DNA from: Acidobacteriota bacterium
GTDB taxonomy: Bacteria > Acidobacteriota > Thermoanaerobaculia > Multivoradales > UBA5704
DNA length: 64,000 nucleotides
NCBI GenBank assembly: GCA_040005235.1
Contig: JBDTZG010000020.1
Span: 27,256 to 91,255 of the forward strand
Reading direction: 5' to 3'
Below are positions 7,078-47,702 of the stretch, in pieces. The notes beneath the pieces are model-generated. The model ran no database searches, had not been told where the DNA came from, and was given only the letters and a program-made list of their open reading frames with translations. Made by a program: the position numbers and the translations under genes. Position 1 is the stretch's first letter. Every line of letters starts with the position of its first letter.

Positions 7078-7175
7078 CCGGCCCAACGGGCCGGCAGAAC
7101 CTAGCCCAGGGCTGAGGCCGAAGGCCGATGCCCTGGGTTCTAAGACCCCCACAGAAAGGCGGCCTGAAAGGCCGC
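7078..7175. repeat. Cluster of REP-like hairpins
   Basis: CCGGCCC-AAC-GGGCCGG; CCCAGGGC...GGCC-GAA-GGCC...GCCCTGGG; GCGGCC-TGAAA-GGCCGC. Confidence 0.6.
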
Positions 7176-7176
7176 G

Positions 7177-7345
7177 AGAGCTTTCTTGAGGTGGCCGATC
7201 ACGTCGCTCAGCACCTCAGTCCGTGCGAGGAGAAACAGGACGTTCAAAGGGTCGGGCCCGGTGGGGATCGGCGTCCCTTCATCGGTCTTTGGCGTCCACC
7301 CACCTGTGTTTCGTTTCCGCCCAGAGGTATTTTGAATCCGTCCAG
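7177..7345 (-). pseudogene. Degenerate fragment of an IS200/IS605-family (Y1 HUH) transposase
   Basis: Minus-strand peptide ...TGPDPLNVLFLLARTEVLSDVIGHLKK resembles the TnpA segment DHxHxLxxLxxTxxxSDxxxxLK. It abuts REP-like hairpins. Boundaries are approximate. Confidence 0.5.
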
Positions 7346-7504
7346 AAGTTCGCAGGTTCCACCCCTGAGTTGTGCACGTCGGTAAGGCGGTCTCTCGCGT
7401 TGGCAATGCGGTAAGCCGCATCCCGGGATCGGAATTCGCCGTCCGCCCGCCTGTGGCCAGATCTCGCCGGCCGGTATCGAGCGTCGGCAAAGGGACGGCT
7501 CAAC

Positions 7505-7540
7505 TATATCTTGACCAGATATACCTACCGCGAATACACT
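7505..7540 (+). promoter_or_regulatory. Sigma70-type promoter with overlapping palindromic operator upstream of padR
   Basis: TTGACC (7511-7516), 18 bp, TACACT (7535-7540), 6 bp, ATG. Inverted repeat TATATC-N7-GATATA (7505-7523) straddles the -35 box. Confidence 0.65.
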
Positions 7541-7546
7541 CGCTGC

Positions 7547-7915
7547 ATGGCAACGCACTCCGACGATCCCACCCCCGCCTCTCTGCTGCCGCTTCCGACC
7601 GCTACGTTCCACATTCTGATCGCGCTCGCCGAAGGGGATCGGCATGGCTACGCGGTGATGCAGGAGGTGGCCGAACGGACGGGAGGGCGGACGAAGCTGA
7701 ACCCCGGCACGCTCTACACGACGCTCCATCGCTTGCTGGAGCAAGGACTGATCGTCGAGCCGGACGCCCGGGAGGTCGCCGCGAATTCGGACGAACGCCG
7801 CCGGCACTATCGGTTGACGCCGTTGGGTCGGGAGGTCGCGGAGCTGGAGCTGGCCCGCCTGGGGGACCTGCTGAACCTCGGCCGGCGCGCCGGCCTTTCG
7901 TACGAGGGGCGGTGA
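7547..7915 (+). CDS. PadR-family transcriptional regulator
   Basis: ILIALAEGDRHGYAVMQEV, GTLYTTLHRLLEQGLI, RRRHYRLTPLG; directly precedes a duplicated permease. Confidence 0.93.
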   Translation: MATHSDDPTPASLLPLPTATFHILIALAEGDRHGYAVMQEVAERTGGRTKLNPGTLYTTLHRLLEQGLIVEPDAREVAANSDERRRHYRLTPLGREVAELELARLGDLLNLGRRAGLSYEGR

Positions 7916-7918
7916 ACC

Positions 7919-10564
7919 ATGCACCCTGAAACCCCAACTTCTTGGTCCGAGCGGGGGTACGCCTCTCTCCTCTGGCTTTACCCCGGTTCGTTCCGCGAGG
8001 AGTACGGCGGCGAGATGACCGCAGCGTTTTCCGCCCGCTGGGCGGAGGCGAAGAGAGATCGAGGCCCATTCGCCTCGGCTTGGGTTTGGCTCTCCGCCGC
8101 GGCGGACGCTCTGGCGACCGCCCTTTCCGAGCACCGCTCGCGGCTTGCTCAGGACTTCGGCCGCGCAGCCCGCACGCTCGCACTCCGGGGCAACCGGGCC
8201 TTTACACTGGCTTCGGTTGCGACGCTCGCCTTGGGACTCGGCGGCGCCACCACGATCTTCAGCCTGGTCCATGCGGTCTTGCTGGCCCCCCTACCGTTCA
8301 AAGAGCCCTCGCGGGTGGTCCACCTGGCCGCCGTGAATCTGTCGCACGACCTGCCGCGCTTCACCGTCTCGGTACCCGATTTCCTCACCTGGCAGGAGCG
8401 CGGTAAGAGCGTCTCAAGGCTCACCGCCATCCAAGAGGTGGGCGTGAATCTCTCGGGAGGCGGCGCGCCGGAACGGGTGACCGGCTTCGCCGTCTCGGGA
8501 AATCTGTTCGACCTCCTGGGCACGCCGTTGCTCGCGGGCCGGGAGTTCACTCTCGAGGAAGACTCACCCGGCGGACCGGCGGTCGCAATCCTCGGCGAAG
8601 GGCTCTGGCGGCGCCGCTACGGCGCGCAAACTTCGATCCTCGGACGGCCGATCCGGGTGAACGGCGAAACCCGCACGGTGGTGGGCATCGCCCCGGCGGA
8701 CGTGGGTTTCTCGACCGACGTCGGCCTTTGGCTGCCGCTTGCGCCGGAGCGATCGGGCGAGAACCGTGGCGACCGCCGGGTCGACGTGCTCGGCCGGCTG
8801 GCGCCCGGGGCGACTCTCGCCACTGCGCAGGCGGAGATCGGGGGGATCAGCGCGCAGCTCGAAAAAGATTTCCCCGACACCAACCTCGGCTGGCAGGCCG
8901 CGGTCGAATCGGTGCGCGATTGGAGGGTCGGAGGGGAGCTGCGTACCCGGCTGCTCGTCCTGCTCGCCGCGGTCGGCGTCCTGCTGCTCGTCGCCTGCGC
9001 GAACGTCGCGAACCTTCAGCTGGCCCGGGCGACGGCGCGGGTACGCGAGATCGGCATCCGCCGCGCGCTCGGCGCGAGCCCCGCCCGGGTGGTCCGGCAT
9101 CTGATGACCGAGAACCTGCTGCTAGCGAGTTTGGGCGGTGCGCTCGGGCTGGGGCTCGCCGCGGCGGCCCTGCGCGGCGCCGCGGCGATCCTACCCGCGA
9201 CACTCCCCCGGCTCTCTTCGATCGCGCTCAACGGGCCGGTGTTGATGGTCGCCTTTCTGCTCACCGCAGCCACCGCGTTCGCATTCGGCATTCTTCCTTC
9301 CGCGCTCGCCGGCCGGACGGACGTGCGGACCGCCCTCGCCCAAGGCGGTCGCTCCGCGGTCGACGCTCGCCGGGCTCCCCTTCGAGAAGGCCTGGTGGTG
9401 GCGCAGCTCGCCCTCGCGACCGCCTTGGCGATCGGCGCGGTGCTGCTCGCGCAGAGCTTCGCCCGGCTGCAACACGTGTCGCTCGGATTTCGGCCGGATC
9501 ACCTGCTCACCGCGCGCCTGACTTTGCCGGATGTCGAGGACAACGACGAGATCTACAAGACCAACCTCGCGCTTTATGCCGCCCTGCTCGAAAAGGCGCG
9601 CGCGCTCCCCGGGGTCACCTCTGCCGGGCTCACCAGTGAAATCCCGCTCGGCGAGGTGAATACGAGCATGGAGGTTTCGGCCCTCGCGCCGCCCCCCGGC
9701 ACGAGCATCGGCTCGGCAGCGAACCGCGAGGGAGCGCAAGCCTCCTGGCGCATCGTGACCGAGGGATACCTGCCGACCCTCGGCGTGCCGCTCCTTCGAG
9801 GTCGCTGGTTCGCCGAGCACCACGAGCCGCACCATTCGCTCCTGCTGAGCGAGGGCCTCGCCCGCCGTCTTTTCCCTCGCGGCGCCGACCCGATCGGCCG
9901 GACGGTCTATCTAGGAAACAATCAGGAGCGCACCGTGGTGGGCGTCGTGGGCGATGTCCGCCAGGTCGGCCTGGAACAAAACCCAACCCCCACGATGTAT
10001 ATGCCGACCACCTGGTACCTTTGGCCGACGATGACGATCGCTGTCCGCACCGCGGGCGATCCGGCGGCCCTCACCCCCGGTCTCCGCCAAGTGCTCCATC
10101 AACTCAACCCCGACCTCGCCCTGTTCGACGTCCGCACCCTTTCCACCGTGATCTCCGGAAGCGTCTCCCAACCTCGCCTCCAGACTTGGGTCGTCGCCCT
10201 CTTCGCGGGCCTGGCGCTCCTCCTCGCCGCCATCGGAGTCGCCGGTCTAGTCGCCTACAACGTCACCCGCCGCACACCCGAGCTGGCCGTCAGAGCCGCC
10301 CTGGGAGCTTCCCCCGGCCGCATTGTGGGGCAGGTCCTCGCCCGAGGATTGGCGCTGTCGCTTTCGGGTGTCACCGCCGGAGTCCTCCTCGCCGCGCTGC
10401 TCGGAAGAGGATTGAAGAGCCTCCTCTACGGCATCGACCCCCACGCCCCGGCAACCTACGCCGCGACCGCGTTGATTCTCGGCAGCCTGGGGGCGCTCGC
10501 GGCCTGGCTCCCCGCCCGGCGGGCGACGCGGATCAGCCCGGTCTTGGCGCTTAAGGGGGAGTGA
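7919..10564 (+). CDS. Duplicated MacB/FtsX-type ABC permease (acidobacterial ADOP type)
   Basis: TLALGLGGATTIFSLV, LLLVACANVANLQLARA, REIGIRRALGA, PARRATRISPVLALKGE; two FtsX halves and no adjacent ATPase. Confidence 0.92.
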   Translation: MHPETPTSWSERGYASLLWLYPGSFREEYGGEMTAAFSARWAEAKRDRGPFASAWVWLSAAADALATALSEHRSRLAQDFGRAARTLALRGNRAFTLASVATLALGLGGATTIFSLVHAVLLAPLPFKEPSRVVHLAAVNLSHDLPRFTVSVPDFLTWQERGKSVSRLTAIQEVGVNLSGGGAPERVTGFAVSGNLFDLLGTPLLAGREFTLEEDSPGGPAVAILGEGLWRRRYGAQTSILGRPIRVNGETRTVVGIAPADVGFSTDVGLWLPLAPERSGENRGDRRVDVLGRLAPGATLATAQAEIGGISAQLEKDFPDTNLGWQAAVESVRDWRVGGELRTRLLVLLAAVGVLLLVACANVANLQLARATARVREIGIRRALGASPARVVRHLMTENLLLASLGGALGLGLAAAALRGAAAILPATLPRLSSIALNGPVLMVAFLLTAATAFAFGILPSALAGRTDVRTALAQGGRSAVDARRAPLREGLVVAQLALATALAIGAVLLAQSFARLQHVSLGFRPDHLLTARLTLPDVEDNDEIYKTNLALYAALLEKARALPGVTSAGLTSEIPLGEVNTSMEVSALAPPPGTSIGSAANREGAQASWRIVTEGYLPTLGVPLLRGRWFAEHHEPHHSLLLSEGLARRLFPRGADPIGRTVYLGNNQERTVVGVVGDVRQVGLEQNPTPTMYMPTTWYLWPTMTIAVRTAGDPAALTPGLRQVLHQLNPDLALFDVRTLSTVISGSVSQPRLQTWVVALFAGLALLLAAIGVAGLVAYNVTRRTPELAVRAALGASPGRIVGQVLARGLALSLSGVTAGVLLAALLGRGLKSLLYGIDPHAPATYAATALILGSLGALAAWLPARRATRISPVLALKGE

Positions 10565-10571
10565 CGGAGCG

Positions 10572-11939
10572 CTACCCCCCCACCACCTCTTCGAACAGCA
10601 ACTCGGCTTTTCCAGTGTCCTGGTAATACGAGAGCCGCGCGGTTTTCTTCGCGTCGTCGAATTTGGCGATCACGTACCCGTGGTTGTACATGTCGTCGGT
10701 GATACCCAATTGAACTGGATTTTCGTTGTTCGGCATCAGGGGGATCTTGTCGCCCACCCGCGAGGCGTAGGGCACTTGGTCGGTGAGGACCGGGACGGCG
10801 GCGTGGCCGATGCACCGCCCTCGGGAAAGGCCGGCGTAGGGACCGTAGATCTCCAGGTTGTGCTCGTGCCCCCAAAGCCAGGCGTCGATTTCCGGGAGCA
10901 CGTCGGCGAACTGAGCCAGCAGGCGGGTGTTCATCGAGCGGTCGCCGTTGTTCGCCGGGCCGATCGGGGAAAAGGCCGAGAACAGCTGGTGGTGAGAGAG
11001 CAGGATCGTCCGACGTCCGGCGGAGTTGTTGATCTTGTCCTTGGCCCAAGCCAGCTCGGCGTCTTCGAGGTAGGTCATCGAGGTCGCCACGTCGAACAAG
11101 TCGTCGTCGTGGAGCCCCGTGTTGAGGCCCAAGATTTGCCACCCGGAGCTTTGCAAGCAGAAAAAGCTATGCGATTGGACCTGCCCTTCCGGCGCGAACG
11201 ACGGCAGGTTCAGACGGTCGAGCGTGCTGTAGTACCCGGCTCCGCCCGAGTACATGTCGTGGTTGCCGGGAAGGTTGAACACCGGCAGCGGCCGGTCCGG
11301 CCCGCGACCGAAGATCTGGTTGATCGGATCGAGGAAGTACCGCTCGTTTTCCGAGGCGGTGCCTGAGTAGTAGACGTCGCCCAGGTGAATCAGCACGTCC
11401 GGCTTGTGGGCGGCAACTTTTTCGAGCAGGGCGATCGCTTCGGCCGTCCCGGTACCCCAGTCGGCGATCAGCGCCACCGTCGCGTTTTCTGACAGAACGT
11501 GAGGCGCCGGATCGCCCAGCCCGGTCGAGGGGCGATAGGGAACGGAGCCTTTGTCGAAGTCGAAGAAATGGACGTAGGCGGCCACCGCCTCGGACCAGAG
11601 CGGATCGCAAGTGCCGAACCTGAGCTCGGATTCGAGCTCGGCGATCTCTTCCGCCGGTCGGTGCTCTATCTTCGCGGTGGCGATCCGCAGCGCCAGGTGG
11701 GCGCACTCTTGGTGGGTGGTGCACGCAGGGTCGGGCGGCGCGGCCGAAGCGAACGAGCCGCCCGCGGCCCCTGCCGCCACCGCCGAAGCGCCGGCCGCGG
11801 CGGCCGCCGAGACGACCGGGTGGTCGAGCGTCGGGCGTTGGCCCGCGGGGGCCGGCGGTTCGCTCTGCCGGTGGAGCACCTCGTCGACAATCGACTGCCA
11901 CCGCGAGACGTGCGGATCGCGAAAGGTCTTGACGCTCAA
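10572..11939 (-). CDS. Calcineurin-like metallophosphoesterase
   Basis: DWGTG, HLGDVYY, PGNHDMY, LLSHHQ, WGHEH metal-binding motifs; TTG start with GGAGG SD. Confidence 0.88.
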   Translation of the reverse strand: MSVKTFRDPHVSRWQSIVDEVLHRQSEPPAPAGQRPTLDHPVVSAAAAAGASAVAAGAAGGSFASAAPPDPACTTHQECAHLALRIATAKIEHRPAEEIAELESELRFGTCDPLWSEAVAAYVHFFDFDKGSVPYRPSTGLGDPAPHVLSENATVALIADWGTGTAEAIALLEKVAAHKPDVLIHLGDVYYSGTASENERYFLDPINQIFGRGPDRPLPVFNLPGNHDMYSGGAGYYSTLDRLNLPSFAPEGQVQSHSFFCLQSSGWQILGLNTGLHDDDLFDVATSMTYLEDAELAWAKDKINNSAGRRTILLSHHQLFSAFSPIGPANNGDRSMNTRLLAQFADVLPEIDAWLWGHEHNLEIYGPYAGLSRGRCIGHAAVPVLTDQVPYASRVGDKIPLMPNNENPVQLGITDDMYNHGYVIAKFDDAKKTARLSYYQDTGKAELLFEEVVGG

Positions 11940-32712: not shown

Positions 32713-33085
32713 GGCTGGTCCTTGCTAACTCCGTAGTCCGAGCTGCTGGTCCGCGGCGTAGGGTGCGGTGACTTGTCTGTGCAACGGGCTCAATGTGAGT
32801 GCTGTCGAGCGCACCGAAGAAATCCTCGGAACTCCCGGGAAAGCAGAAGACACCATGCCCTCTCCATCGAAATTCCTCGATGGTTCAGCGGGCATGGTGT
32901 AGTTCGTTTCCAACGGAGGTCTGTTCAGATCGATTCGTCGGCCCTCCCCGCGGTAAGGAAGCAAACGCCGAGGCTTAAGCTTCGGCGGGAACTGCGCTCA
33001 CCGGCGGGTCGCTAGAAACTGCCGTTGCAACGCTTGTTTGAGCGTGTGTCGCGCGCTCCAACGAAAAGAGCGCGCGGCGGACGAG

Positions 33086-33463
33086 CTACTTGACCTCGAC
33101 CTTCGCTCCAGCATCTTCGAACTTCTTCTTGATCGTCGCGCCCTCTTCCTTCGAGACCCCTTCCTTGATCGTCGAAGGAGCGGCCTCGACGAGGTCCTTG
33201 GCTTCCTTGAGACCGAGGCTCGTCACTTCGCGGACGGCCTTGATGACGTTGATCTTGTTCGCGCCGAAGTCCTTGAGGACGACGGTGAACTCGGTCTGCT
33301 CTTCAACCGGAGCCGCCGCAGCCGCCGGACCGGCCGCAGCCGCCGGAGCCGCCGCAGCCGCGGACACGCCATAGTGATCTTCGAGCGCCTTGACCAGGTT
33401 GTTCAGTTCGAGGACGGTCAGATCGTCGATCTGCTTGATGAAATCTTCGGTCGCAATGGCCAT
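33086..33463 (-). CDS. rplL: 50S ribosomal protein L7/L12
   Basis: [37 protein letters not shown]. Confidence 0.99.
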
Positions 33464-33511
33464 TTTCTTCTCCTTCCAGGACTTTTCAGTCTCTTTAAGA
33501 ACGTATCGAAT

Positions 33512-34051
33512 CTAGAGGGCAGCGCCCTGCTCTTCTTTTTTCTTCGCGACCTGATCGAGCACCACGACGAAGCTCTGCGGCACCGCGGCGAGGGTCCGGA
33601 CGAACCGGGCGATCGGCGACTGGAGCAGGAACAGAAGCTTCGAGAGCAGCGCCTCGCGGCTCGGCAGCTCGGCGATGGCTTTGATCTGGTCGGCCTGAAT
33701 CTGCTGGCCTTCGACCAGACCGGCCTTGAACTCGAGGACCGGCGCGGTCTTCGCGAAATCGGTCAGCGCCTTGGCGAGGGCGACCGGATCTTTCAAACAG
33801 TACGCCACCGCGGTCGGGCCGACGAAGTGCTGCTTGAGGTCGGCGAGCTGGCCCCCCTCGATCGCGCGCAGGGCCAGGGTGTTCTTTACCACCAGATAGT
33901 GGCCCCCGCTCTGGCGAATCTTTTCGCGGAGCTCCGTCACCTGCGGAACGCTGATGCCCTTGTAGCCCAGGAGGAAGGCATGCGGCGCGGCCGCCAAGCC
34001 CTCCGTATAGTCCTGGATCATCTCTTCTTTGACATTACGTGTGAGCGGCAT
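33512..34051 (-). CDS. rplJ: 50S ribosomal protein L10
   Basis: VVKNTLA, GPTAVA, AELPSRE; conserved gene order. Confidence 0.97.
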   Translation of the reverse strand: MPLTRNVKEEMIQDYTEGLAAAPHAFLLGYKGISVPQVTELREKIRQSGGHYLVVKNTLALRAIEGGQLADLKQHFVGPTAVAYCLKDPVALAKALTDFAKTAPVLEFKAGLVEGQQIQADQIKAIAELPSREALLSKLLFLLQSPIARFVRTLAAVPQSFVVVLDQVAKKKEEQGAAL

Positions 34052-34062
34052 CGTTCCCTCTC

Positions 34063-34767
34063 CTAGGCTTCGGCAGCACCGGTCATTCCAGTTTCGTCCA
34101 CGCGAATTCCAGGGCCCATGGTCGAGGAAAGGCTCACTGACTTCACGTACTTACCCTTGGCCGCGGCGGGCTTCGCCTTGATCACAGCGCCAATGAAGGC
34201 GTGGGCGTTGTCCGCCAGCTGCTCCTCGGAAAACGAGAGCTTGCCGAGCGGCGCGTGGATGATCCCGGTCTTTTCGACCCGGAACTCGACCTTGCCGGCC
34301 TTGATCTCTTCGACCGCCTTGGCCACGTCCATCGAGACCGTGCCGGCCTTCGGGTTGGGCATCAGGCCGCGGGGCCCAAGCACCTTACCCAGACGACCGA
34401 CGACGCGCATCATGTCCGGGGTCGCGACCACCGCGTCGAAATCGAGCCAACCGCCCTCGATCCGCTTCGCGAGATCGTCGCCACCGACGTAATCCGCGCC
34501 TGCGGCCTCGGCCTCGCGCAGCTTCTCGCCGCTCGCGAACACCAGGACTTTCGCGGTTTTGCCTAGACCGTGCGGCAGGACGACCGTGCCGCGGACCATC
34601 TGGTCGGCGTGCTTGGGATCGACGCCCAGCCGCATGGCGATCTCGAGCGTTTCGTCGAACTTGGCGAACGCGACTTCCTTGGCGATATGTACCGCTTGGT
34701 CCAGCGGATGCGCCTGCTGGTCCACCTTCTGCGACGACTGTGAGTACTTCTTTCCGTGCTTCGCCAC
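34063..34767 (-). CDS. rplA: 50S ribosomal protein L1
   Basis: [38 protein letters not shown]. Confidence 0.99.
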
Positions 34768-34798
34768 GACGCAATTCTCCCGTTTGGTCTTTAGCCGG

Positions 34799-35224
34799 CT
34801 AGCCGACGATCTCGACGCCCATCGAGCGCGCGGTTCCTTCGATGATCCGCACCGCGGCCGCCAAGGAAGCCGCGTTCAGGTCGGGCATCTTCGCCTTCGC
34901 GATTTCCTCGACCTGGGCGGCCGTCACCGAACCCTTTTTGGTGCGGTTCGGCTCGCCCGAGCCCTTGTCGATTCCCGCGGCCTTCTTGAGCAGGATCGCC
35001 GCCGGCGGCGTCTTGGTGATGAAGGTGTAGCTGCGATCCGAATAGACGGTGACCACCACCGGGATGATCAAACCGATCTGAGATTGCGTGCGGGCGTTGA
35101 AATTCTTCACGAAATCCATGATGTTGACGCCCGCCTGGCCCAACGCCGGGCCTACGGGCGGCGCAGGCGTGGCCTGACCTGCCGGAATCTGCAACTTGAC
35201 CAGCCCTGTGACTTTCTTAGCCAT
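34799..35224 (-). CDS. rplK: 50S ribosomal protein L11
   Basis: [25 protein letters not shown]. Confidence 0.99.
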
Positions 35225-35239
35225 CGCTAGCGCTCCGCG

Positions 35240-35316
35240 CGAATGTCGAGTGTCGAATCAGGAATCCAGAATGTCGAAGAAAAATTTCGAGATTCTCGAT
35301 TCGCAATTCGCCATTC
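35240..35316. repeat. Inverted pair of degenerate 7-bp tandem repeats in the nusG-rplK spacer
   Basis: CGAATGT CGAGTGT CGAATCA GGAATCC AGAATGT CGAA, then TTCGAGA TTCTCGA TTCGCAA TTCGCCA TTC. Confidence 0.75.
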
Positions 35317-35881
35317 AGATTTTCTGCACCTTCGAGAAATCCAGCTCGACCGGCGTTTGCCGGCCGAAGATTGTGACCATGACCTTCAGGCTGTTGCGGT
35401 CGAGATTGACCTCGTCCACCAAGCCGGTGAAATTGCTGAAGGGGCCTTCGGTAATCCGAACCTGCTCCCCTTTTTCGAAGAGATACTTCGGTTTCGGCTT
35501 TTCCTTCGCGGTCACCACCTGCTCGAGGATCTGATTGACCTCTTCTTCGGACAGCGGCGTCGGCTTCTTGCCCATGCCGACGAAGCCCGTAACCTTCGGC
35601 GTGTTCTTGACCACGTGCCACGCCGCGTCGGACATCGCCATCTCGACCAGGATGTACCCCGGGAAAAACTTCCGCTGCGTCTCTTTCTTCTTACCGTTCT
35701 TGTACTCGACCACCGTCTCCGTGGGGATACGGATGTCCCCGAAGGCGGGCCCCATGTCGAGCGCGTCGGCACGCTGGCGCAACGTCTCCTTGACCCGCTC
35801 CTCAAACCCGGAGTAGGTATGGACGATGTACCATTTCTTGTCGAGTGCCGTTTCAGCCATGGCTTCGATCGTTTTGTTCAC
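35315..35881 (-). CDS. nusG: Transcription termination/antitermination factor NusG
   Basis: [41 protein letters not shown] start overlaps the secE stop; an alternative ATG lies at 35860. Confidence 0.98.
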
Positions 35882-36162
35882 GAGCCCAGTGCCTTGAAGA
35901 GTCCTTCATACCCGCGAAGGATCAGGAAGTCCGCCACCCACAGATAGACGGCGAAGATGACGCTCGCGACGATGACCACGATCGTCGTGGCCACCACCTC
36001 GTCCCGCGGCGGAAACGTGACCTTCTTCATCTCCGACCGGACCTCGCCAAAAAAGACGAGGCCCTTGGCATAGTGACCCACTTTGTACAGCCACCACCCC
36101 AGCCCGGCAAGGCCGGCCACCACCACCGCTGTTACGATCCAACCGATCTTCTCAGGCGTCAT
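35878..36162 (-). CDS. secE: Preprotein translocase subunit SecE
   Basis: EVRSEMKKVTFPPRDEV followed by a TM helix; lies between tRNA-Trp and nusG. Confidence 0.95.
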   Translation of the reverse strand: MTPEKIGWIVTAVVVAGLAGLGWWLYKVGHYAKGLVFFGEVRSEMKKVTFPPRDEVVATTIVVIVASVIFAVYLWVADFLILRGYEGLFKALGS

Positions 36163-36198
36163 TGGCGTTCTTCGACTCCACCCTCGCGAGCGGGAAAA

Positions 36199-36275
36199 TG
36201 GCAGGCCAGGAGGGATTTGAACCCCCAACCCCCGGTTTTGGAGACCGGTGCTCTACCAGCTTGAGCTACTGGCCT
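36199..36275 (-). tRNA. tRNA-Trp (CCA)
   Basis: AGGCCAGTAGCTCAAGCTGGTAGAGCACCGGTCTCCAAAACCGGGGGTTGGGGGTTCAAATCCCTCCTGGCCTGCCA; anticodon CCA, encoded 3' CCA. Confidence 0.97.
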
Positions 36276-36297
36276 TCGCCCCTGACTTCTCGTAATT

Positions 36298-37503
<1,206 letters not shown>

Positions 37504-37625
37504 GGCCTCTCCTGCGCCTCCTCGGCATCCTTACCGGTCAATCTCTCGAATCCGTCTATGTGGTTCAACCCAGCCTTATTCCATCTTCACCGCGGCCGGG
37601 CTTACCGTCTTGATGAGCGTACTTT

Positions 37626-37700
37626 TGGAGCCCACGACCGGATTTGAACCGGTGACCCCTTCCTTACCAAGGAAGTGCTCTACCGCTGAGCCACGTGGGC
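37626..37700 (-). tRNA. tRNA-Thr (GGT)
   Basis: GCCCACGTGGCTCAGCGGTAGAGCACTTCCTTGGTAAGGAAGGGGTCACCGGTTCAAATCCGGTCGTGGGCTCCA. Confidence 0.97.
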
Positions 37701-37765
37701 TTGGGGACACCGATGCGCCGACCCTAGCCTGACGCCGGGGCCGCCGCCAGCGGCGAAACCCGACG

Positions 37766-37795
37766 AACTTACACCAACCGAGGACCCTCTTGCAA
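37766..37795 (-). promoter_or_regulatory. Probable sigma70 promoter for tRNA-Thr-tuf
   Basis: Minus strand TTGCAA-N18-TAAGTT, about 65 bp upstream of the tRNA. Confidence 0.5.
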
Positions 37796-37959
37796 GCCCC
37801 GAGCCTGAACGGCGGCGAGATTTTAGCGAGCTTGAAATGGGAATCCGCGGGGTCCGCCCTTACGGAACGGGGCCGACAGTCTGACAGAGGCGGAGGGTTC
37901 TTGTCCAGCACTCTTTTCTCTGACGACGCTCACCCCCGCACTTCGGGCGCCTTCGGCCT

Positions 37960-40900
37960 TCAGTTTTTCGCCACCCTCTCCCAAAACGCCCGAATCCGCC
38001 GCAGGCCCTCTTCGAAGACCAGCGTTTCCACCGAAAAAACGAACCGGCAGTGCTCGGGGATGCCCGTCCAGCGGCTATTGTTGATCATGAGATCGACCGC
38101 CCAGAACATGGCCTCAGCGATGTTTTCACTATCCAAAACGCAGGCGTATTCCCCGTGGCCGGTCGAGACCGAAAAGCTTCGGCCCAGATAGGCGGCGGGT
38201 CGGGCGACGAGGAACAACCCGCCGTGGCAGGGAAGGGGCTCCCAGCCGCACTCGGAGAGGACGGCCGAGAGACGCGCGGCCCGGGCGGCGAGTAGGCGCC
38301 GCTGTTCAATCAATTCTTCCCGGGTCCGGGGTGTCGGACGGTTCAGGCCGGAGAAGATCCGCTTGGCGGCAAAGCACGTCGTAGCATGGGGCGTGGCGGT
38401 GAGCCCCCGGGCGACCGAGCGCTCGATCGCCTCGCCGTGGCACCAGGCAAAACCGAAGCGCAGTCCCCCGCCGGCCAGCTCTTTGGACACGCCGCCGAGA
38501 AGGACCAAACTGAGGGCGTTGTCGGCAAGCACCGGTCCGAGATCCCACGACACCCCTTCGGCGTGCTCCAGGCCCGAAAAGAGCACGTCGATCACCACCC
38601 GCGCCCGGTGTTTCGCCGCCACGGCGAGCAACGAGGCGATCTCGTCGCTCTGATAGAGACTGCCGGTCGGATTGACCACCGGTCCATTCAGAAACAGCCA
38701 TGGCCGGGCGACCCCGGCGAGCGCCGTATCCAGCTCCTGAGGCGTCACCTTGAAACCGTTTGCCTTGTCGGTGGCGATCCGTAGCCACCGGCCGCCGAAC
38801 AGCTCGACCGTCGCGACGAAATAACCATAGGAACCGGCGGGAAAGACGAACGTGCCCCCCTCGGCGGCGCACGATTCGGCGAGGCTTGAAAAGAGCGGCG
38901 CCACCCCGAGCCCGAAAGCGAAACGCGGCGCGAGCCGGCCGGTTCCGACAACTCCCACATCGATACCAAAGCGTCGCCTCAAGAACTGCGCCACCTCCGC
39001 GGTCGGATCAGCCTCCGCCGCCGGCAGCTCGCGGCGGGCGAACGCCTCGAACAGGCTCGCCGCCACCAAAGTCGGCGAGGGGAGGGCGTTTTCGCCGTAG
39101 TCCAAGCGAACCGTGTTGGCCGTTCGCGGCAGATGCTCGGCGACGATCGCGGGATGCTCGAACGCCTTCCTGCATCGTTCCGCGAGCGCCACGGTGGAAG
39201 AGAACGCTCTGCCAGGTCCAGTCCCCGGTACCGTTCCAGCCGACCGGGCGACCGCGGGGCTCAAGGGATCGAGCCGGAAGCTCAGAAGCTCCGCAAGGAT
39301 CGTGTCGTAGTACTCCTGGGTGAAGAGCGGCACCCGGCTGTAGGTCATCTCGGCGGCGTTTTCGAGCGCCGTCACCAGGCCGTCGTCCTCGGAGAGCAGA
39401 AAACAGACTTCGAGGTCGCGATAGACCCGGTTCCGCACCAATCCGCAGAGGATCGCCACGTGGGCGGGCAGCGGCGCCTCGGAGAGCGCTTGAAGGACGC
39501 CGTTGCTCCGGGGCGTGCTGTCCAGCTCGAAGAACGACGAGATGTCGACCACCAGGCGCGCCCCGGCCCGTCCCGAGGTTTCGACTAGGCGCAGGAACGA
39601 ATCGGGCGAGCGGACGTCCCCGGCGTCGAGCGTCGTCACCACCAGCTGGGGCGCAAGCGCCGCAATCAGCTTGCAGGCCAGGTCGGCCCGGAGGGGGCAT
39701 TCGAGCACGTCCCCTGAGAAAGCCAGTTGGATCGCCTGGCCCTGGGAGCTCGTCTGGAGAGAGGGGTGAATCAGCGACAGCGTCGGGGCGTACAGCGTGA
39801 ACAGGTTGCGCAGCGCCGAGGCACGGTTCGGCAGGGCCACCAGGTTAACCGCCCCGAGCGGAATCGCGAAGTAGCGCTCCAGGTATTCGGCGAACCGCTG
39901 CCGAAAGGGCAGAGCGCCAAGCGTCTCGCCGTAGGGAAAAGCGCGCCGTTCCGGCAGCAGCCGGGCCAGGCGGGCGAGGAACGCGGATTTTTCTTCGACC
40001 AGCGCGTCGTCTTCATAGTCCAGATCGAGCGCATTGCGCACCGGACGCCACTCTTCGCCGTGGAGGGCGGCGAACACCGGGTTCATCGCCTCGGGGAAGC
40101 GCAGCCGCCCTTCGAACACCGTGAGCGAATGAAAGATCGCCCCTCCTGCTCTGGCATAGGCCTGCGCGGTCCGGGCCGAGACCGGCTCGTCGCTATGGAC
40201 CCCGAGGAAGAACTCGAACCGGTGCCGGCCGCTCCGCTCGATCTCCGCAAGCGGGCTGATGTCGGTGTCGTCCGCCTGGGCGATCCGGGTGGACCAGATC
40301 TCGCGCATCGCCAAGCCTCGGCGGCAGAACATCTGGCGCAGGATCTCCCGGCCGGGCCGGCCGCCCAGGTTCAGCACCACCCAGCCGCCGGGCCGCATCA
40401 CCTCGATCGCCTCTTCAAGGGCGCGCGCCACGAGCCCGAGCCCGAACAGGTCCTCCAGATAGCCCTGATGGCCGGTGTAATTGGAGAGCGAGACGAGAAA
40501 CTCGTCGCTCAGCTCCTTGCCGGTGCCATCCAGCTCGCCCAGGTTCGGATCGAGCACCTGCGGGATGCAGCCGATCACCCGATCGAGATTCAAGCCCCCC
40601 TCTCTCACCCAGGCCAGTAGGTCCGATTCGTGAAACTCCACCCGGTCGAGCAGGCTCTTGCCGTCGGCGTCCAGAATCGGTTCGCCGTCCGAGGTCAAGG
40701 CGTTCAGGTAGAGATTGATCCTCGCGCAGGTGATCGCCCGCGGGTTGATGTCCAGGCCGTAGAGCTTCTCCGGCGCCGCGTGGTGGGCGAGCGCGAGGGT
40801 CACCCAACCGTTGCCGCAACCCAGCTCGGCCAAGGTCCGGCCGGCGAAGTCGTGCGGCGAGTAACGGGCGAGCCCTTCGAAGAAGGTCCGCGACCACTCC

Positions 40901-41184
40901 TCGGGGGCAAAGACGCTGGGGAACTGGAGCAGGACGAGGGCGCCCTCGGAGCGTCCGATCGAGAGCGTGCCAAGCTGGAAATGAAACGCCCCCGGCTGCT
41001 CCCCAGCTTCGACCGCCCGGTCGAACGCCAAGGCGATCCGCGCCAAGAACCGCCGCGCCTCCCCGCGAGTCGCGAGATCTTCGAGCGCGGAAAGGATCTC
41101 CTCGAACCGCCGGTACGCCGTTGCACTGGCGCTTCGGCAGGCGGCGAGGAACTCCTCGGCGTCGAGGGGATCGATGGGCCTCAC
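37960..41184 (-). CDS. Plant-type methionine S-methyltransferase (SAM-methyltransferase domain fused to a PLP aminotransferase-like region), ~1074 aa
   Basis: PSVFAPEEWSRTFFEGL, ELGCGNGW, YGLDINPRA, NLYLNAL, LLDRVEFHESDLL, GCIPQVLDPN, SLSNY, FGLGLVARALEE, QADDTDISPLAEIE, HRFEFF match the motif order recalled for plant MMT. C-terminal NPTG and SKELAGGGLRFG. GTG start overlaps the udk stop (GTGA). Confidence 0.85.
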   Translation of the reverse strand: MRPIDPLDAEEFLAACRSASATAYRRFEEILSALEDLATRGEARRFLARIALAFDRAVEAGEQPGAFHFQLGTLSIGRSEGALVLLQFPSVFAPEEWSRTFFEGLARYSPHDFAGRTLAELGCGNGWVTLALAHHAAPEKLYGLDINPRAITCARINLYLNALTSDGEPILDADGKSLLDRVEFHESDLLAWVREGGLNLDRVIGCIPQVLDPNLGELDGTGKELSDEFLVSLSNYTGHQGYLEDLFGLGLVARALEEAIEVMRPGGWVVLNLGGRPGREILRQMFCRRGLAMREIWSTRIAQADDTDISPLAEIERSGRHRFEFFLGVHSDEPVSARTAQAYARAGGAIFHSLTVFEGRLRFPEAMNPVFAALHGEEWRPVRNALDLDYEDDALVEEKSAFLARLARLLPERRAFPYGETLGALPFRQRFAEYLERYFAIPLGAVNLVALPNRASALRNLFTLYAPTLSLIHPSLQTSSQGQAIQLAFSGDVLECPLRADLACKLIAALAPQLVVTTLDAGDVRSPDSFLRLVETSGRAGARLVVDISSFFELDSTPRSNGVLQALSEAPLPAHVAILCGLVRNRVYRDLEVCFLLSEDDGLVTALENAAEMTYSRVPLFTQEYYDTILAELLSFRLDPLSPAVARSAGTVPGTGPGRAFSSTVALAERCRKAFEHPAIVAEHLPRTANTVRLDYGENALPSPTLVAASLFEAFARRELPAAEADPTAEVAQFLRRRFGIDVGVVGTGRLAPRFAFGLGVAPLFSSLAESCAAEGGTFVFPAGSYGYFVATVELFGGRWLRIATDKANGFKVTPQELDTALAGVARPWLFLNGPVVNPTGSLYQSDEIASLLAVAAKHRARVVIDVLFSGLEHAEGVSWDLGPVLADNALSLVLLGGVSKELAGGGLRFGFAWCHGEAIERSVARGLTATPHATTCFAAKRIFSGLNRPTPRTREELIEQRRLLAARAARLSAVLSECGWEPLPCHGGLFLVARPAAYLGRSFSVSTGHGEYACVLDSENIAEAMFWAVDLMINNSRWTGIPEHCRFVFSVETLVFEEGLRRIRAFWERVAKN

Positions 41185-41822
41185 GGTTGGCCGAGCAGCT
41201 GTTCGACCCGGGCGACGACCATCTCCAGGGCGACCCGGTTCTCCCCCCCCTCGGGGATGATGATGTCGGCCCAGCGCTTCGACGGCTCGACGAATTCGAG
41301 GTGCATCGGCCGGACCGTCTCCTGGTACTGGCGCAGGACGTCCTCGACCGTCCTCCCCCGCTCGTCCAGGTCGCGGGTGAGCCGGCGGATCAGTCGAATG
41401 TCGGCGTCGGTATCGACATAGACCTTGAAGTCCTGGATCGCCCGCAAAGAGGGCTCGACGAAGATCAGGATCCCTTCGAGCAGCACGACCGGCCGCGGCT
41501 CGACGACGCGGGTCCGGTCGGTCCTGCGGTGGCGCACGAAATCGTAGATCGGCACCTCGACCGCGCGGCCGGCGCGGAGCTCGCGGACGTGCTCGACCAG
41601 CAGCTCGTTGTCGATCGCCGCCGGATGGTCGAAATTGTGGTGAAGCAACGAGGAGTCGGTCGTCCAATCGACGTCGCGGTAATAGTTGTCCTGCTCGATC
41701 AGGGCGATCCGGTCGCGGCCGACGGCGTCGAGAATCGAGCGCACGACGGTCGTCTTGCCCGAACCGGTCCCTCCCGCGACGCCCAGAACGCGGGGCTGTG
41801 AAGAGGCGATGGCTGAAAGCAT
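41181..41822 (-). CDS. udk: Uridine kinase
   Basis: GGTGSGKTT, QDNYY, NFDHP, EGIL, RGRTV, VRPMHLEFVEPSKRWADIIIP. Confidence 0.96.
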   Translation of the reverse strand: MLSAIASSQPRVLGVAGGTGSGKTTVVRSILDAVGRDRIALIEQDNYYRDVDWTTDSSLLHHNFDHPAAIDNELLVEHVRELRAGRAVEVPIYDFVRHRRTDRTRVVEPRPVVLLEGILIFVEPSLRAIQDFKVYVDTDADIRLIRRLTRDLDERGRTVEDVLRQYQETVRPMHLEFVEPSKRWADIIIPEGGENRVALEMVVARVEQLLGQP

Positions 41823-41856
41823 CCCGGGATTGTATCCGGCCGCGATCGTCTGGGCT

Positions 41857-41948
41857 CAGCGCCGCGGAACTTTCCTGCGGGCGGGCCCTCGTAACTCGCT
41901 TCGCTCAGACAGACTCGGGCTCCGTCCTCGGAAAGTTCCGCGGCGCTG
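41857..41948. repeat. Palindromic intergenic element (REP/MITE-like) with 19-bp perfect terminal inverted repeats
   Basis: CAGCGCCGCGGAACTTTCC (41857-41875) and GGAAAGTTCCGCGGCGCTG (41930-41948) enclose ...AACTCGCTTCGCTCAGACAG... Confidence 0.7.
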
Positions 41949-41955
41949 GGAACCG

Positions 41956-42780
41956 TTATCGTTGGCAGCCCGGGCAGAAGTAGGTGCTCCGGTTGCCGAG
42001 GACGGTCCGGCGAATGGTCTTGCCACACCGTTTGCACTCTTCGCCTTCCCGGTCGTAGACCGAGAGGGAAACCTGGAAGTACCCGCTCCGCCCTTCGCCG
42101 TCGGCGAAATCGTTGAGCGTCGTTCCGCCTTCCGCCACCGCCTGGGAGAGCACCTCGACGAGAAGCTCCGCGAGCCGATCCCAGCGCTTCGCCGAGATCC
42201 GCGCGACCGACCGCAAAGGGTGGATGCCGGCGCGGAAGAGCGTTTCCGCCGCATAGATGTTCCCCGCGCCGACCACCACGGTGCCGTCCATCAAGAAGCC
42301 TTTGACCGGACCACGCCGCCCTTCCGCCGCAGCCTTGAGGGTGCGGCCGGAGAAGCCCGGCTCCAGCGGCTCCACCCCGAGATGAGAAAAATGCGGATCG
42401 TCGTTCCGCTCGGCGGTCTTGTAGGTGAAGACGAGCCCGAACCGCCGCGGGTCGCGCAAGCGGAGCTTTCTCCCCGAGGCGAGGAAGAACGCGACGTGCT
42501 CGTGCGGTTCGAGCGGCTCGTCTTCCGGAACCAGGGTGAACCGACCGCTCATGCCGAGGTGAACCCCGAGGCTCCATCCCCCTTCGAGATCGAGCAGCAG
42601 GTACTTGCCCCGCCGGTCGAGCCGGTCGATCCGCCGGCCGGAGACACGCCGGGCCAGCTCGCGGGTCTGGATCGGCTCGCGCAGGCGGGCATCGCGAACC
42701 TCCACCCGCTCGATGCGGTCGCCCAGCACGAACGGCTCCAGGCTGCGACGGAGAACTTCGATTTCGGGAAGCTCGGGCAT
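41956..42780 (-). CDS. mutM: Formamidopyrimidine-DNA glycosylase
   Basis: MPELPE, RRGKYL, HLGMSG, DPRRFG, GNIYA, C-terminal CxxC...CPGCQ finger. Confidence 0.98.
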   Translation of the reverse strand: MPELPEIEVLRRSLEPFVLGDRIERVEVRDARLREPIQTRELARRVSGRRIDRLDRRGKYLLLDLEGGWSLGVHLGMSGRFTLVPEDEPLEPHEHVAFFLASGRKLRLRDPRRFGLVFTYKTAERNDDPHFSHLGVEPLEPGFSGRTLKAAAEGRRGPVKGFLMDGTVVVGAGNIYAAETLFRAGIHPLRSVARISAKRWDRLAELLVEVLSQAVAEGGTTLNDFADGEGRSGYFQVSLSVYDREGEECKRCGKTIRRTVLGNRSTYFCPGCQR

Positions 42781-42800
42781 GGCGGTTCCCTGACCTCCCC

Positions 42801-46004
<3,204 letters not shown>

Positions 46005-46035: not shown

Positions 46036-47682
46036 TCACTCACCTCCCGTGCCGAGCAACACGTCAACGACTTCGGCGGCGAAGGTCATCGTTCGGCCAT
46101 CGATGAGAACCGTTCGGTTCGGCGCCGAAGGGTCGGGATCGCTCGTCGGCCGGGCACCCGGCATTCCATGCGCGAGAAGCGCCGCCGCGCAACCGGGCCA
46201 ATCTCCATCGACGCGCGGCTCGTTGAGCGAGGCCCACGAGAGGGTACCGATCACGTCGCTGCCGTAGCCGTGCGATTCGCGAAAACTGGCGCCATGTTCC
46301 AGCAAGAACTCCGCGAGCGCCGGATTGCCGCGGAAGACCGCCCAGTTGAGCGCCGAGCCGTCGATGTCGCCGCCGCGCACGGCGATCGGCCACCCCAACT
46401 CGACCATCAGCCTCACCGCGTCGTCGCTGCCGCCCATTGCCAGGTTGGGCAACTGCCTCAATTGCCCCGCCGAAAGAGAGGCGAACAGATCGGGCTTCGC
46501 GGCGAGCAACTCCCGTGCTTCCGCCTTGTCCACGCGAGCGCAGGCCGCCACGAATTTTTCTTCGAGGGAAAGCGGTTCGCCGTTGCCCCCCTCTTCGAGC
46601 AGCCGGACCACCTCGGGCAGCCCGAAGCTCCCGGCGCGCCGGTGGGCGCTCTGCCCATCGGAATGGAGCGTCCGTGGATCCGCCCCGGCGTCCAGCAAGG
46701 CTCGCACGTGCGCAGCGGACCTTCCGCGGTAGATCGCCCAGTGAAGGATGCGGCCCAAGTCCGGGTCGCCCTGCTCCGTGTGCGCCAGGAGCATCTTCAG
46801 ACCGGCGAGGTTGTCGAAATCCAGCACCTTCGCCAGGGCATTCGTACCGGGGACCCTCGCGCCCCCTTCCAACAAAAGCCGCGTGCAGGGCAGCTCGCGC
46901 CGCGGGTCTTCCAGCGAATGGTAGAGCGACTCTCCATCGTTGGGGTCGGCACCGGCGGCGAGCAGCATTTCGGTCATCGTCACGTCGTGCAGTTTGCCGG
47001 CCGCGCCGTAGATCGCGGTCAGCCTTTCATCGCCGGGTTTTTCGAGCGAGTGCGGCGGCCACCGGTTGCCGAACGACGCGTTGGGATCGGCCTGCGCGTC
47101 GAGCAGCAGGCGAACCGAGCGATAGAGCGCCTCGCGGTAGGGATCGAGGCCCGCGAGCCCCGAGTGCGTGATGGCGATCAACGGCGGGATGTTCAAGAGC
47201 CCCCCGCTGCGATTCACCCACCCGGCATCACGATCGATCGCGCGACGAATCGCTCCCTCGTCACCGATCGCGCAGGCGAGGTAAGGGTCGTCCCCCGCCA
47301 GCTCCGGAGTCTCGGCAAGCAAACGCGCCGCAAGCGCGGGCCGGGGCCGTCCGGTGCCGCCTGCGACATCCGCCCCGTAGACAAGCCGCAGCCAATGAAG
47401 GCGCCGGCTCTCAAAGCTCTCCCTCAGAACGCCCTCCAGCTCCACGTAGTCTTTAAGCTCCACCCAGCTCGAAAAGCCGTACTCGCGGGCAATGCACGAC
47501 TGCATGTCGTGTAGCCGAAGTTGCAGCGCGATCAGGGCGGGGTTGCTCTTGTTCCGGGCGGAGGGGAGGGACTGCCGAAGCCGTTCGAATGCGGCGGCAT
47601 CCTCAAGGCGGTACTGGCGCAGCAGATCCTTCGCCTGCTTGCGCAAATGTTCGACGCTGGAACGCTCGGGGAGTGTGCTCAC
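46036..47682 (-). CDS. Ankyrin-repeat protein with N-terminal 'LPxxxxxEHLRKQAKDLL...IAREYGFxSW' helical domain
   Basis: Repeated LLxAGADPN-type ankyrin motifs. GGAGG SD lies 8 nt before GTG at 47682, preferred over ATG 47697. Confidence 0.85.
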   Translation of the reverse strand: MSTLPERSSVEHLRKQAKDLLRQYRLEDAAAFERLRQSLPSARNKSNPALIALQLRLHDMQSCIAREYGFSSWVELKDYVELEGVLRESFESRRLHWLRLVYGADVAGGTGRPRPALAARLLAETPELAGDDPYLACAIGDEGAIRRAIDRDAGWVNRSGGLLNIPPLIAITHSGLAGLDPYREALYRSVRLLLDAQADPNASFGNRWPPHSLEKPGDERLTAIYGAAGKLHDVTMTEMLLAAGADPNDGESLYHSLEDPRRELPCTRLLLEGGARVPGTNALAKVLDFDNLAGLKMLLAHTEQGDPDLGRILHWAIYRGRSAAHVRALLDAGADPRTLHSDGQSAHRRAGSFGLPEVVRLLEEGGNGEPLSLEEKFVAACARVDKAEARELLAAKPDLFASLSAGQLRQLPNLAMGGSDDAVRLMVELGWPIAVRGGDIDGSALNWAVFRGNPALAEFLLEHGASFRESHGYGSDVIGTLSWASLNEPRVDGDWPGCAAALLAHGMPGARPTSDPDPSAPNRTVLIDGRTMTFAAEVVDVLLGTGGE

Positions 47683-47702
47683 GGACAAAACCTCCATGCA
47701 TT

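Follow-up and report, generated by a model that had tools for sequence, protein, structure and literature searches.

We analysed a 64,000-nucleotide (nt) stretch of contig JBDTZG010000020.1 of an Acidobacteriota bacterium (hereafter the window, whose positions are used for all coordinates), in which the gene at 37960-41184 on the minus strand had been proposed, in a sequence-only reading of the same DNA, to encode a full-length plant-type methionine S-methyltransferase (MMT). Our comparisons indicate that its predicted product truly belongs, as a bacterial representative, to the plant-type (Group III) MMTs, and that its C-terminal part carries a complete predicted site for pyridoxal 5′-phosphate (PLP), which is strictly conserved in the bacterial copies and lost in land plants. 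Taken as a whole, the explanation that we consider likely is that of a genuine Group III MMT which makes S-methylmethionine (SMM), is carried as cargo in a variable genomic slot and probably performs a second, PLP-dependent reaction.

The frame runs uninterrupted for 1074 codons (translation of 37960-41184) from a GTG start to a TGA stop, and full-length homologues support it. A search over 5.8 billion proteins returned 184 matches. Among the best 120 of these, most are ~1040-1130 amino acids (aa) long with 97-100% coverage, the rest being shorter or partial, and the nearest ones (92-56% identity) are metagenomic or labelled Thermoanaerobaculia/Acidobacteriota. Plant MMTs align along 98-99% of the query with 38-41% identity (Amborella at 41% and Marchantia at 39%, both covering 99%, and many angiosperms at 38-40%), and several matched rows are named methionine S-methyltransferase. 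With this colinearity over 99% of the length, the proposal of a full-length plant-type enzyme was borne out. The opposite outcome named at that time, namely PrmC-like best matches without colinearity, did not occur, as the best matches were full-length MMTs. A PrmC-like identity was rejected, because the PrmC-type models scored only 26-32 bits, far under their cut-offs.

A bacterial plant-type MMT has already been described. According to those parts of Peng 2022 (PMC9135737) on which we draw, which cite Williams 2019, some Deltaproteobacteria and Oligoflexia have a plant-like MMT that shares the dual-domain structure, and the plant and bacterial enzymes together are designated Group III. This agrees with the statement in the sequence-only reading that long forms are known from few bacterial groups, and lowers the novelty assumed there. 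In the same parts of that paper, the Group III gene is described as unlinked to genes for dimethylsulfoniopropionate (DMSP), nonribosomal peptide synthetases or methionine cycling, and what SMM does in these bacteria is called difficult to predict. The gene studied here is a further member, in a Thermoanaerobaculia-like genome. It has the same length and domain order as the bacterial Group III enzymes, falls in one tree with the copies of Pseudobacteriovorax, Silvanigrellaceae and Bacteriovoracaceae, and is likewise unlinked to the three kinds of genes mentioned above; it differs from those reported in its host, which belongs to Thermoanaerobaculia/Acidobacteriota, and in coming from soil and root material.

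The N-terminal domain (residues 1-365; 40090-41184, minus strand) was assigned as an MmtN-like S-adenosylmethionine (SAM)-dependent methyltransferase from Pfam matches at residues 99-271 and from the alignment of PDB entry 7vvv, the sole solved relative of this domain, to residues 79-363 (E 1e-7); its GxGxG motif is G122-G126. The data availability section of PMC9135737 gives 7VVV as MmtN of Roseovarius indicus. With this Group I enzyme the domain has in common the methyltransferase fold, the GxGxG motif and the SAM contacts, Asp69 and Cys121 of MmtN corresponding to D145 and C206, both of which are invariant in 40 of 40 aligned sequences. MmtN differs in being a single-domain protein of 305 aa, whereas the window protein has three domains in 1074 aa; the Pro169/Arg183 phosphate pocket of the MmtN trimer is L243/E257 here; and MmtN is reported to be clustered with DMSP genes (PMC9135737), whereas the window MMT lies beside carB, mutM, udk, tRNA-Thr and tuf. 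In comparison with land-plant MMT (EC 2.1.1.12), the N-domain is 48-54% identical to plant N-domains (48-51% in Marchantia, Amborella and Ziziphus), and all 55 of the family-invariant N-domain positions are identical in Marchantia. Judging from this conservation with the assayed plant enzymes and with MmtN, the window MMT probably makes SMM from SAM and methionine; the N-domain would move the methyl group of SAM onto the methionine sulfur.

The rest of the protein had earlier been called aminotransferase-like. This holds broadly, with the correction that it comprises two units, a degenerate middle domain and a complete class-I aminotransferase. The C-terminal class-I (fold-type I) aminotransferase domain (residues 663-1074; 37963-39198, minus strand) contains a Pfam Aminotran_1_2 match at residues 769-999 (E 5.6e-22). 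A profile of 26 C-domain sequences matched PDB entry 4my5 (1.4e-31), aspartate aminotransferase (AspAT) and 1-aminocyclopropane-1-carboxylate (ACC) synthase (9.5e-25), and Foldseek gave target-normalised TM-scores of ~0.74-0.84, with ~0.8 to Thermus AspAT and to prephenate aminotransferases. The middle domain (residues 366-640; 39265-40089, minus strand) is specific to the MMT family and is read as a degenerate aminotransferase large domain, its profile giving weak PDB matches to parts of aminotransferases (2zc0, 4.6e-4; CqsA, 2e-3; 2gb3, 2.9e-3). An AlphaFold2 model of the MMT, built on 40 sequences, had a mean pLDDT of 87.1 and a pTM of 0.85, with disordered loops at residues 211-224, 233-243 and 641-662.

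Next, we examined the predicted PLP site. In a pairwise alignment with the AspAT of S. meliloti, GGVSKELAGGGLRFG stands opposite NGVSKAYAMTGWRIG, so that K901 coincides with the lysine that forms the Schiff base and R909 with the arginine for the phosphate, and the canonical Asn, Asp and carboxylate Arg are matched by N838, D866 and R1047. The codon of K901, within the motif GGVSKELAGGGLR, is at 38482-38484, and that of R909 is at 38458-38460 (both on the minus strand, from the translation). We compared 73 locus-derived bacterial rows, from at least seven named phyla, with 14 land plants over the columns that are at least 95% conserved in the bacteria. K901 and R909 were found in 73 of 73 bacterial rows and in none of the 14 land plants; N838, D866 and R1047 each occur in at least 97% of the bacterial rows. 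In a larger alignment that includes duplicates, Lys stands at position 901 in 173 of 201 rows. The 28 exceptions comprise 24 rows from land plants and two partial rows, as well as two unnamed rows, one of them plant-like and the other with Arg.

We observed that this loss in land plants is concentrated in the C-domain, where just 13 of the 40 bacterial-conserved columns are kept in all 14 plants, as against 71 of 76 in the N-domain and 15 of 19 in the middle domain. The C-domain columns lost include K901, R909 and Y786 (replaced by Asn), each kept in 0 of 14 plants, together with G760, L990 and F991; in the substrate loop R693, G697, E698 and N699 are lost, and the middle-domain residues Y615 and R617 are likewise missing from the plant enzymes. 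In contrast, a divergent bacterial trio with 27-32% C-domain identity, labelled Holophagaceae, Solibacteraceae and Planctomycetota, retains 36-38 of the 40 columns, and the row of a streptophyte alga retains 33 of 40, K901 and R909 included. The strict conservation of a complete predicted PLP site in bacteria suggests that the bacterial MMTs are probably bifunctional, with a second, PLP-dependent reaction. The parts of Peng 2022 (PMC9135737) drawn on here do not mention a PLP site. Literature searches on the PLP lysine of MMT, on an origin by horizontal gene transfer and on SMM together with ACC-synthase-like bacterial enzymes returned nothing relevant as judged by titles and the beginnings of abstracts.

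The C-domain has in common with AspAT, prephenate aminotransferases and ACC synthase the whole fold and the set of Asn, Asp, Lys, Arg and Arg. It differs from the class-I aminotransferases in being fused behind a methyltransferase and a half-aminotransferase domain, in having Phe in the place of Tyr225, and in the absence of the Y-x4-G-x4-R motif, which is present instead in the middle domain as Y418-G423-R428. In aminotransferases this motif donates a tyrosine to the active site of the partner subunit. When the middle and C-domains were predicted as two separate chains, they obtained a score of 0.92 (0.91, 0.92 and 0.92 in the three runs), compared with 0.00 for the best of three controls; of solved complexes, 58 of 80 attain the mark set for this score, as do 2 of 110 mismatched pairs. 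At least 90% of the contacts are common to the runs, and the partner pLDDT is 88-89. The predicted interface comprises the GEN loop, the G760 loop, S900 and residues 904-909 (including R909) on the C-domain side, and residues 413-419 (including Y418) and 612-622 (including Y615, S616 and R617) on the middle-domain side. Of the middle-domain columns lost in plants, Y418, A611, Y615 and R617, three of four lie at this interface. We infer that the middle and C-domains would pack within the chain like an aminotransferase dimer and build one complete PLP site, intact in bacteria and decayed in land plants.

The bacterial enzyme would run this PLP-dependent step on an α-amino acid, as is indicated by the retained carboxylate Arg, and most plausibly on its own freshly made SMM. 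SMM is the obvious candidate substrate, and the conceivable reactions are an elimination releasing dimethylsulfide (a γ-elimination, or an ACC-synthase-like reaction) and a transamination or decarboxylation, which might lead toward DMSP-type products. The more detailed joint reading, in which a bifunctional MMT with an in-chain pseudo-dimer acts on SMM, the streptophyte gene came from bacteria and the PLP site decayed later in land plants, has in our estimate somewhat less than an even chance of being right in all its parts. ACC synthase itself acts on a sulfonium compound, SAM, and its AEN sequence, around the sulfonium-binding Glu47, may be the counterpart of the GEN loop; the N-terminal loop of ACC synthase lies outside the aligned stretch. 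An affinity of the C-domain specifically for ACC synthase was not seen: ACC synthase ranks sixth in the profile search, behind five aminotransferases. A PLP module that makes methionine from the salvage-pathway intermediate 4-methylthio-2-oxobutyrate gains no support either: acireductone dioxygenase (PF03079) was not found in the window's own genome, although MtnA is present. ACC deaminase (TIGR01274) was not found there either.

Several points weigh against a bifunctional, SMM-making enzyme. The canonical Tyr225 equivalent, which forms a hydrogen bond with O3′ of PLP and matters for AspAT catalysis, is F869, and Phe occupies this position in 99% of the 73 bacterial rows. The conserved PLP site could serve cofactor-dependent folding or regulation instead of turnover. 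The middle and C-domains are two parts of one chain and resemble many solved aminotransferase dimers, so that the two-chain score may mirror this likeness and not their own packing. The methionine-binding residues of MmtN map poorly in the pairwise alignment (Glu127 on D212, Arg132 on E217 and Glu250 on H321); E217 falls in a low-confidence, disordered loop. Finally, no neighbouring gene, in the window or at the other MMT loci, hints at a substrate or product.

The first alternative is a monofunctional MMT as in plants, in which the N-domain alone is catalytic and the rest serves assembly or regulation, perhaps with a structural PLP. The land plants retain their middle and C-domains though none of the 14 has the catalytic lysine, which shows a non-catalytic use there, and both F869 and the lack of a partner gene suggesting a second product point in the same direction. 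However, the 40 C-domain columns, N838, D866, K901, R909 and R1047 included, are conserved at 95% or more in bacteria down to 27-32% identity, whereas the purely structural role, as in plants, tolerated the loss of 27 of them. We therefore regard a monofunctional bacterial enzyme as rather unlikely, and prefer a bifunctional one.

It is improbable, in our view, that the gene encodes the first step of DMSP synthesis by the methylation pathway, with the later enzymes encoded elsewhere. Enzymes of the MmtN type do start DMSP synthesis, and the Group III strain Pseudobacteriovorax antillogorgiicola made DMSP; but it was the only one of the four tested Group III strains to do so, and the gene is described as not DMSP-linked (PMC9135737, in the parts drawn on). 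No DMSP-pathway genes were found among the window genes, in agreement with what had been noted from the sequence, and the cupin DMSP lyase PF16867 was not found in the genome, which is 100% complete. In addition, near-identical MMT DNA came from soil and root, not marine, material: both of the runs in which it was found are from one study and carry soil and root metagenome labels, and one of them (X1) may be the source sample itself.

A plant-like SMM cycle, in which MMT and homocysteine S-methyltransferase (HMT) buffer the methionine and SAM pools, is very unlikely. In plants, where HMT is its partner, MMT is accepted to have this role. The window's genome differs, as its one PF02574 match lies inside a 1188-aa MetH-like frame; in five other MMT carriers PF02574 sits in frames of 1176-1251 aa, and Fluviispira alone has a second match, in a 647-aa open frame. 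A stand-alone HMT was thus not found by the PF02574 search in five of six MMT-bearing genomes, which makes a plant-style cycle unlikely, even though an SMM cycle has been proposed for the organisms with Group II MmtN (PMC9135737). Equally far from probable is a methyltransferase domain whose main substrate is not methionine but, for instance, selenomethionine or a different thioether: the sequence does not reveal which substrate is used, and the equivalents of MmtN Arg132 and Glu250 differ, but the plant MMTs, which are methionine S-methyltransferases, have the same residues there, and the 71 kept N-domain columns are identical in 14 of 14 land plants.

The sequence-only reading had further suggested that the gene bears on the origin of the plant enzyme. 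We built a full-length tree of 84 rows (LG+G4, quick search, midpoint root on the divergent trio), in which the 11 streptophyte rows form one clade (starred support, 100). The streptophytes lie within a starred set (98) together with 61 bacterial rows and one Thermoanaerobaculia-labelled row; outside this set are the Acidobacteriota clade to which the window protein belongs (support 92) and two single rows, of Myxococcales and of Planctomycetota. In an N-domain tree rooted on two short MmtN-like proteins, the plants (starred support, 99) are nested in a 73-row set (starred support, 95) that excludes the window's clade. Plant MMT therefore nests inside bacterial diversity under two rootings, the root being tentative since the N-domain outgroup branch is very long and both tree searches were quick. 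The suggestion stands in so far as plants form one clade nested in bacteria; the clade of the window protein branches early, and not as the sister of plants. The intact PLP site in bacteria and the alga, absent in land plants, fits with bacteria as the older holders.

These results extend an already described and unexplained bacterial family of plant-like MMTs to soil and root Acidobacteriota. Of greater value is the comparison between the copies, with a complete predicted PLP site conserved in every bacterial one and its coordinated loss in land plants. The comparison offers a concrete and testable explanation for the presence of the long form in these bacteria and suggests a former role of the enigmatic C-terminal half of plant MMT; if it is right, the 'aminotransferase' region of the plant enzyme would be the relic of a decayed PLP site. 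Should dimethylsulfide or a novel sulfonium metabolite be the product of the PLP module, terrestrial organosulfur cycling would gain a further route. The single streptophyte clade within bacterial diversity supports a bacterial origin of the first enzyme of the plant SMM cycle.

The MMT family is rare yet widely scattered. A pattern scan over one genome per GTDB species gave 94 relatives among 211 pattern matches, a lower bound as two peptide patterns were required, and 80 of these were kept. Their labels include Thermoanaerobaculia, other Acidobacteriota, Cyanobacteria (Xenococcus, Waterburya), Sericytochromatia, Bacteroidota, Myxococcales, Planctomycetota and Burkholderiaceae, Bdellovibrionota (Silvanigrellaceae, Pseudobacteriovorax, Bacteriovoracaceae) and Gammaproteobacteria (Aliikangiella, Pleionea, Kangiellaceae, Alteromonadaceae, Alcanivoracaceae). 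The middle-domain profile matched just 221 representatives of 1.84 billion (E up to 0.001), the full-length members of which are ~1000-1100 aa long with the middle domain at ~360-650. Matches of 700-800 aa to this profile appeared to be forms without the methyltransferase, but the four of them that align as MMT (P0122, P0126, P0151 and P0166) and the partial P0103 were rejected as truncated calls; all five begin inside the N-domain, at window residues 281-345. We also noted a divergent MMT-like subfamily (L097, L098 and L100, with the partial L099 and L101) labelled Holophagaceae, Solibacteraceae and Planctomycetota, which matches from query residue 74 at 32-35% identity and keeps the methyltransferase invariants.

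At the gene level the description made from the sequence proved accurate. All eight of the MMT motifs it had listed are present in the order given: EEFLAAC (10-16), PSVFAPEEWS (89-98), ELGCGNGW (120-127), LDINPRA (144-150), ESDLL (186-190), GCIPQVL (205-211), FGLGL (247-251) and DTDI (306-309). The GC content of the MMT region, 0.667-0.672, falls within the range of the window (0.598-0.705), and is host-like as claimed. The GTG start (41184-41182) shares three bases with the TGA stop of udk (41183-41181), forming GTGA, so that the reported overlap is real, and homologues whose alignments begin at residue 1-4 support this start; a longer TTG-started frame (37960-41667) was rejected, as it would run into udk. 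The udk (uridine kinase) gene (41181-41822) passes the NCBIfam cut-offs, its product scoring 257.4 bits for TIGR00235 (cut-off, 220.3) and 275.7 for NF004018 (cut-off, 180). Upstream of it are mutM (formamidopyrimidine-DNA glycosylase; 41956-42780) and carB (carbamoyl-phosphate synthase large chain; 42801-46004), and on the other side are tRNA-Thr (GGT; 37626-37700, by ARAGORN and Rfam), 259 nt downstream of the MMT stop, and tuf (EF-Tu; 36298-37503), mutM, carB and tuf being assigned by Pfam. The order carB, mutM, udk, MMT, tRNA-Thr, tuf, tRNA-Trp, nusG, rplK, all on the minus strand, confirms the core-gene setting. Directly upstream of carB, at 46036-47697 on the minus strand, lies a gene for a 553-aa ankyrin-repeat protein.

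From the start/stop overlap, MMT is probably co-transcribed with udk. Scans of 37400-43000 were uninformative, with 0 promoter-like sites and five terminator-like sites against 4.0 expected; Rfam found the two tRNAs alone and no riboswitch over 33000-43000, and there was no RNA dataset among the runs listed as holding MMT-gene DNA.

We searched for MMT in 41 genomes of the lineage, namely the window's own and 40 relatives, and found a patchy distribution. Full-length matches were present in four genomes: three of the eight in the window's own genus (its own and two congeners, G001 and G003) and one of another genus of the same family. The order's other families, represented by 16 genomes, yielded none, and another 18 'matches' were rejected as ordinary aminotransferases or methyltransferases. 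Both congeners keep the order carB-mutM-udk-MMT-tRNA-Thr-tuf. The GTGA overlap recurs in one congener, and in G001 the MMT begins at ATG, 15 nt past the udk stop; the copy in the other genus has an unrelated gene context. Among five MMT-less relatives checked, mutM-udk is kept in four (G002, G004, G009 and G018), and in the fifth (G014) udk alone was matched. In G002, a congener, mutM-udk and tRNA-Thr-tuf are in place with ~5.8 kb of other DNA between them; this slot (L022:5736-11330) holds an IS200-like transposase (7171-7623) and an 874-aa PPDK_N/PEP-utilising enzyme (8521-11145).

The place between udk and tRNA-Thr is a variable spot of the genus. Since the flanks are conserved without MMT and G002 has other cargo there, the udk overlap reflects a compact insertion into a variable slot, and MMT would be a single cargo between udk and tRNA-Thr/tuf. 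The coupling to udk proposed earlier is thus real as an overlap, but looks positional and says little for any functional link to uridine kinase, given that udk persists without MMT and that the two genes are 15 nt apart in G001. Also in G001, between the full mutM and udk, the segment L015:6151-7270 contains additional short stretches that match udk (over 60 aa), carB (over a length of 36 aa) and mutM (in two pieces); they stem either from duplicated or rearranged local DNA or from a misassembly.

At four other MMT loci (L027, L028, L036 and L047), the neighbours are unrelated to one another and to sulfur metabolism. In a Silvanigrellaceae-type clade the order of the MMT locus is conserved in L032:2400-14175 and in 13-15 further loci (L031, L034, L038-L042, L044, L048, L072, L080, L090, L093 and L096). 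It starts with rplL-rplJ-rplA-rplK and an unknown open reading frame (ORF), followed divergently by MMT, an archaeal-type (d)CMP kinase, another unknown ORF, an OsmC-CinA fusion, uridine kinase and a B12-binding protein. In two distant phyla, then, MMT lies between uridine kinase and rplKAJL with a pyrimidine kinase gene adjoining; in the window's genus these uridine-kinase/rpl flanks exist also without MMT. The ORF directly upstream of rplK in these loci, the usual place of nusG, encodes 423 aa in L032 (4767-6038, minus strand), with a cluster median of 375 aa over 18 loci, and has no Pfam or NCBIfam match. Seven metagenome-assembled genomes (L031, L032, L039, L041, L042, L080 and L093) are labelled Pseudomonadota, Proteobacteria or Betaproteobacteria, yet show the Silvanigrellaceae-type synteny; six of them group with the Silvanigrellaceae copies in the tree, L093 being separate, and the Proteobacterial labels of all seven may be outdated or wrong.

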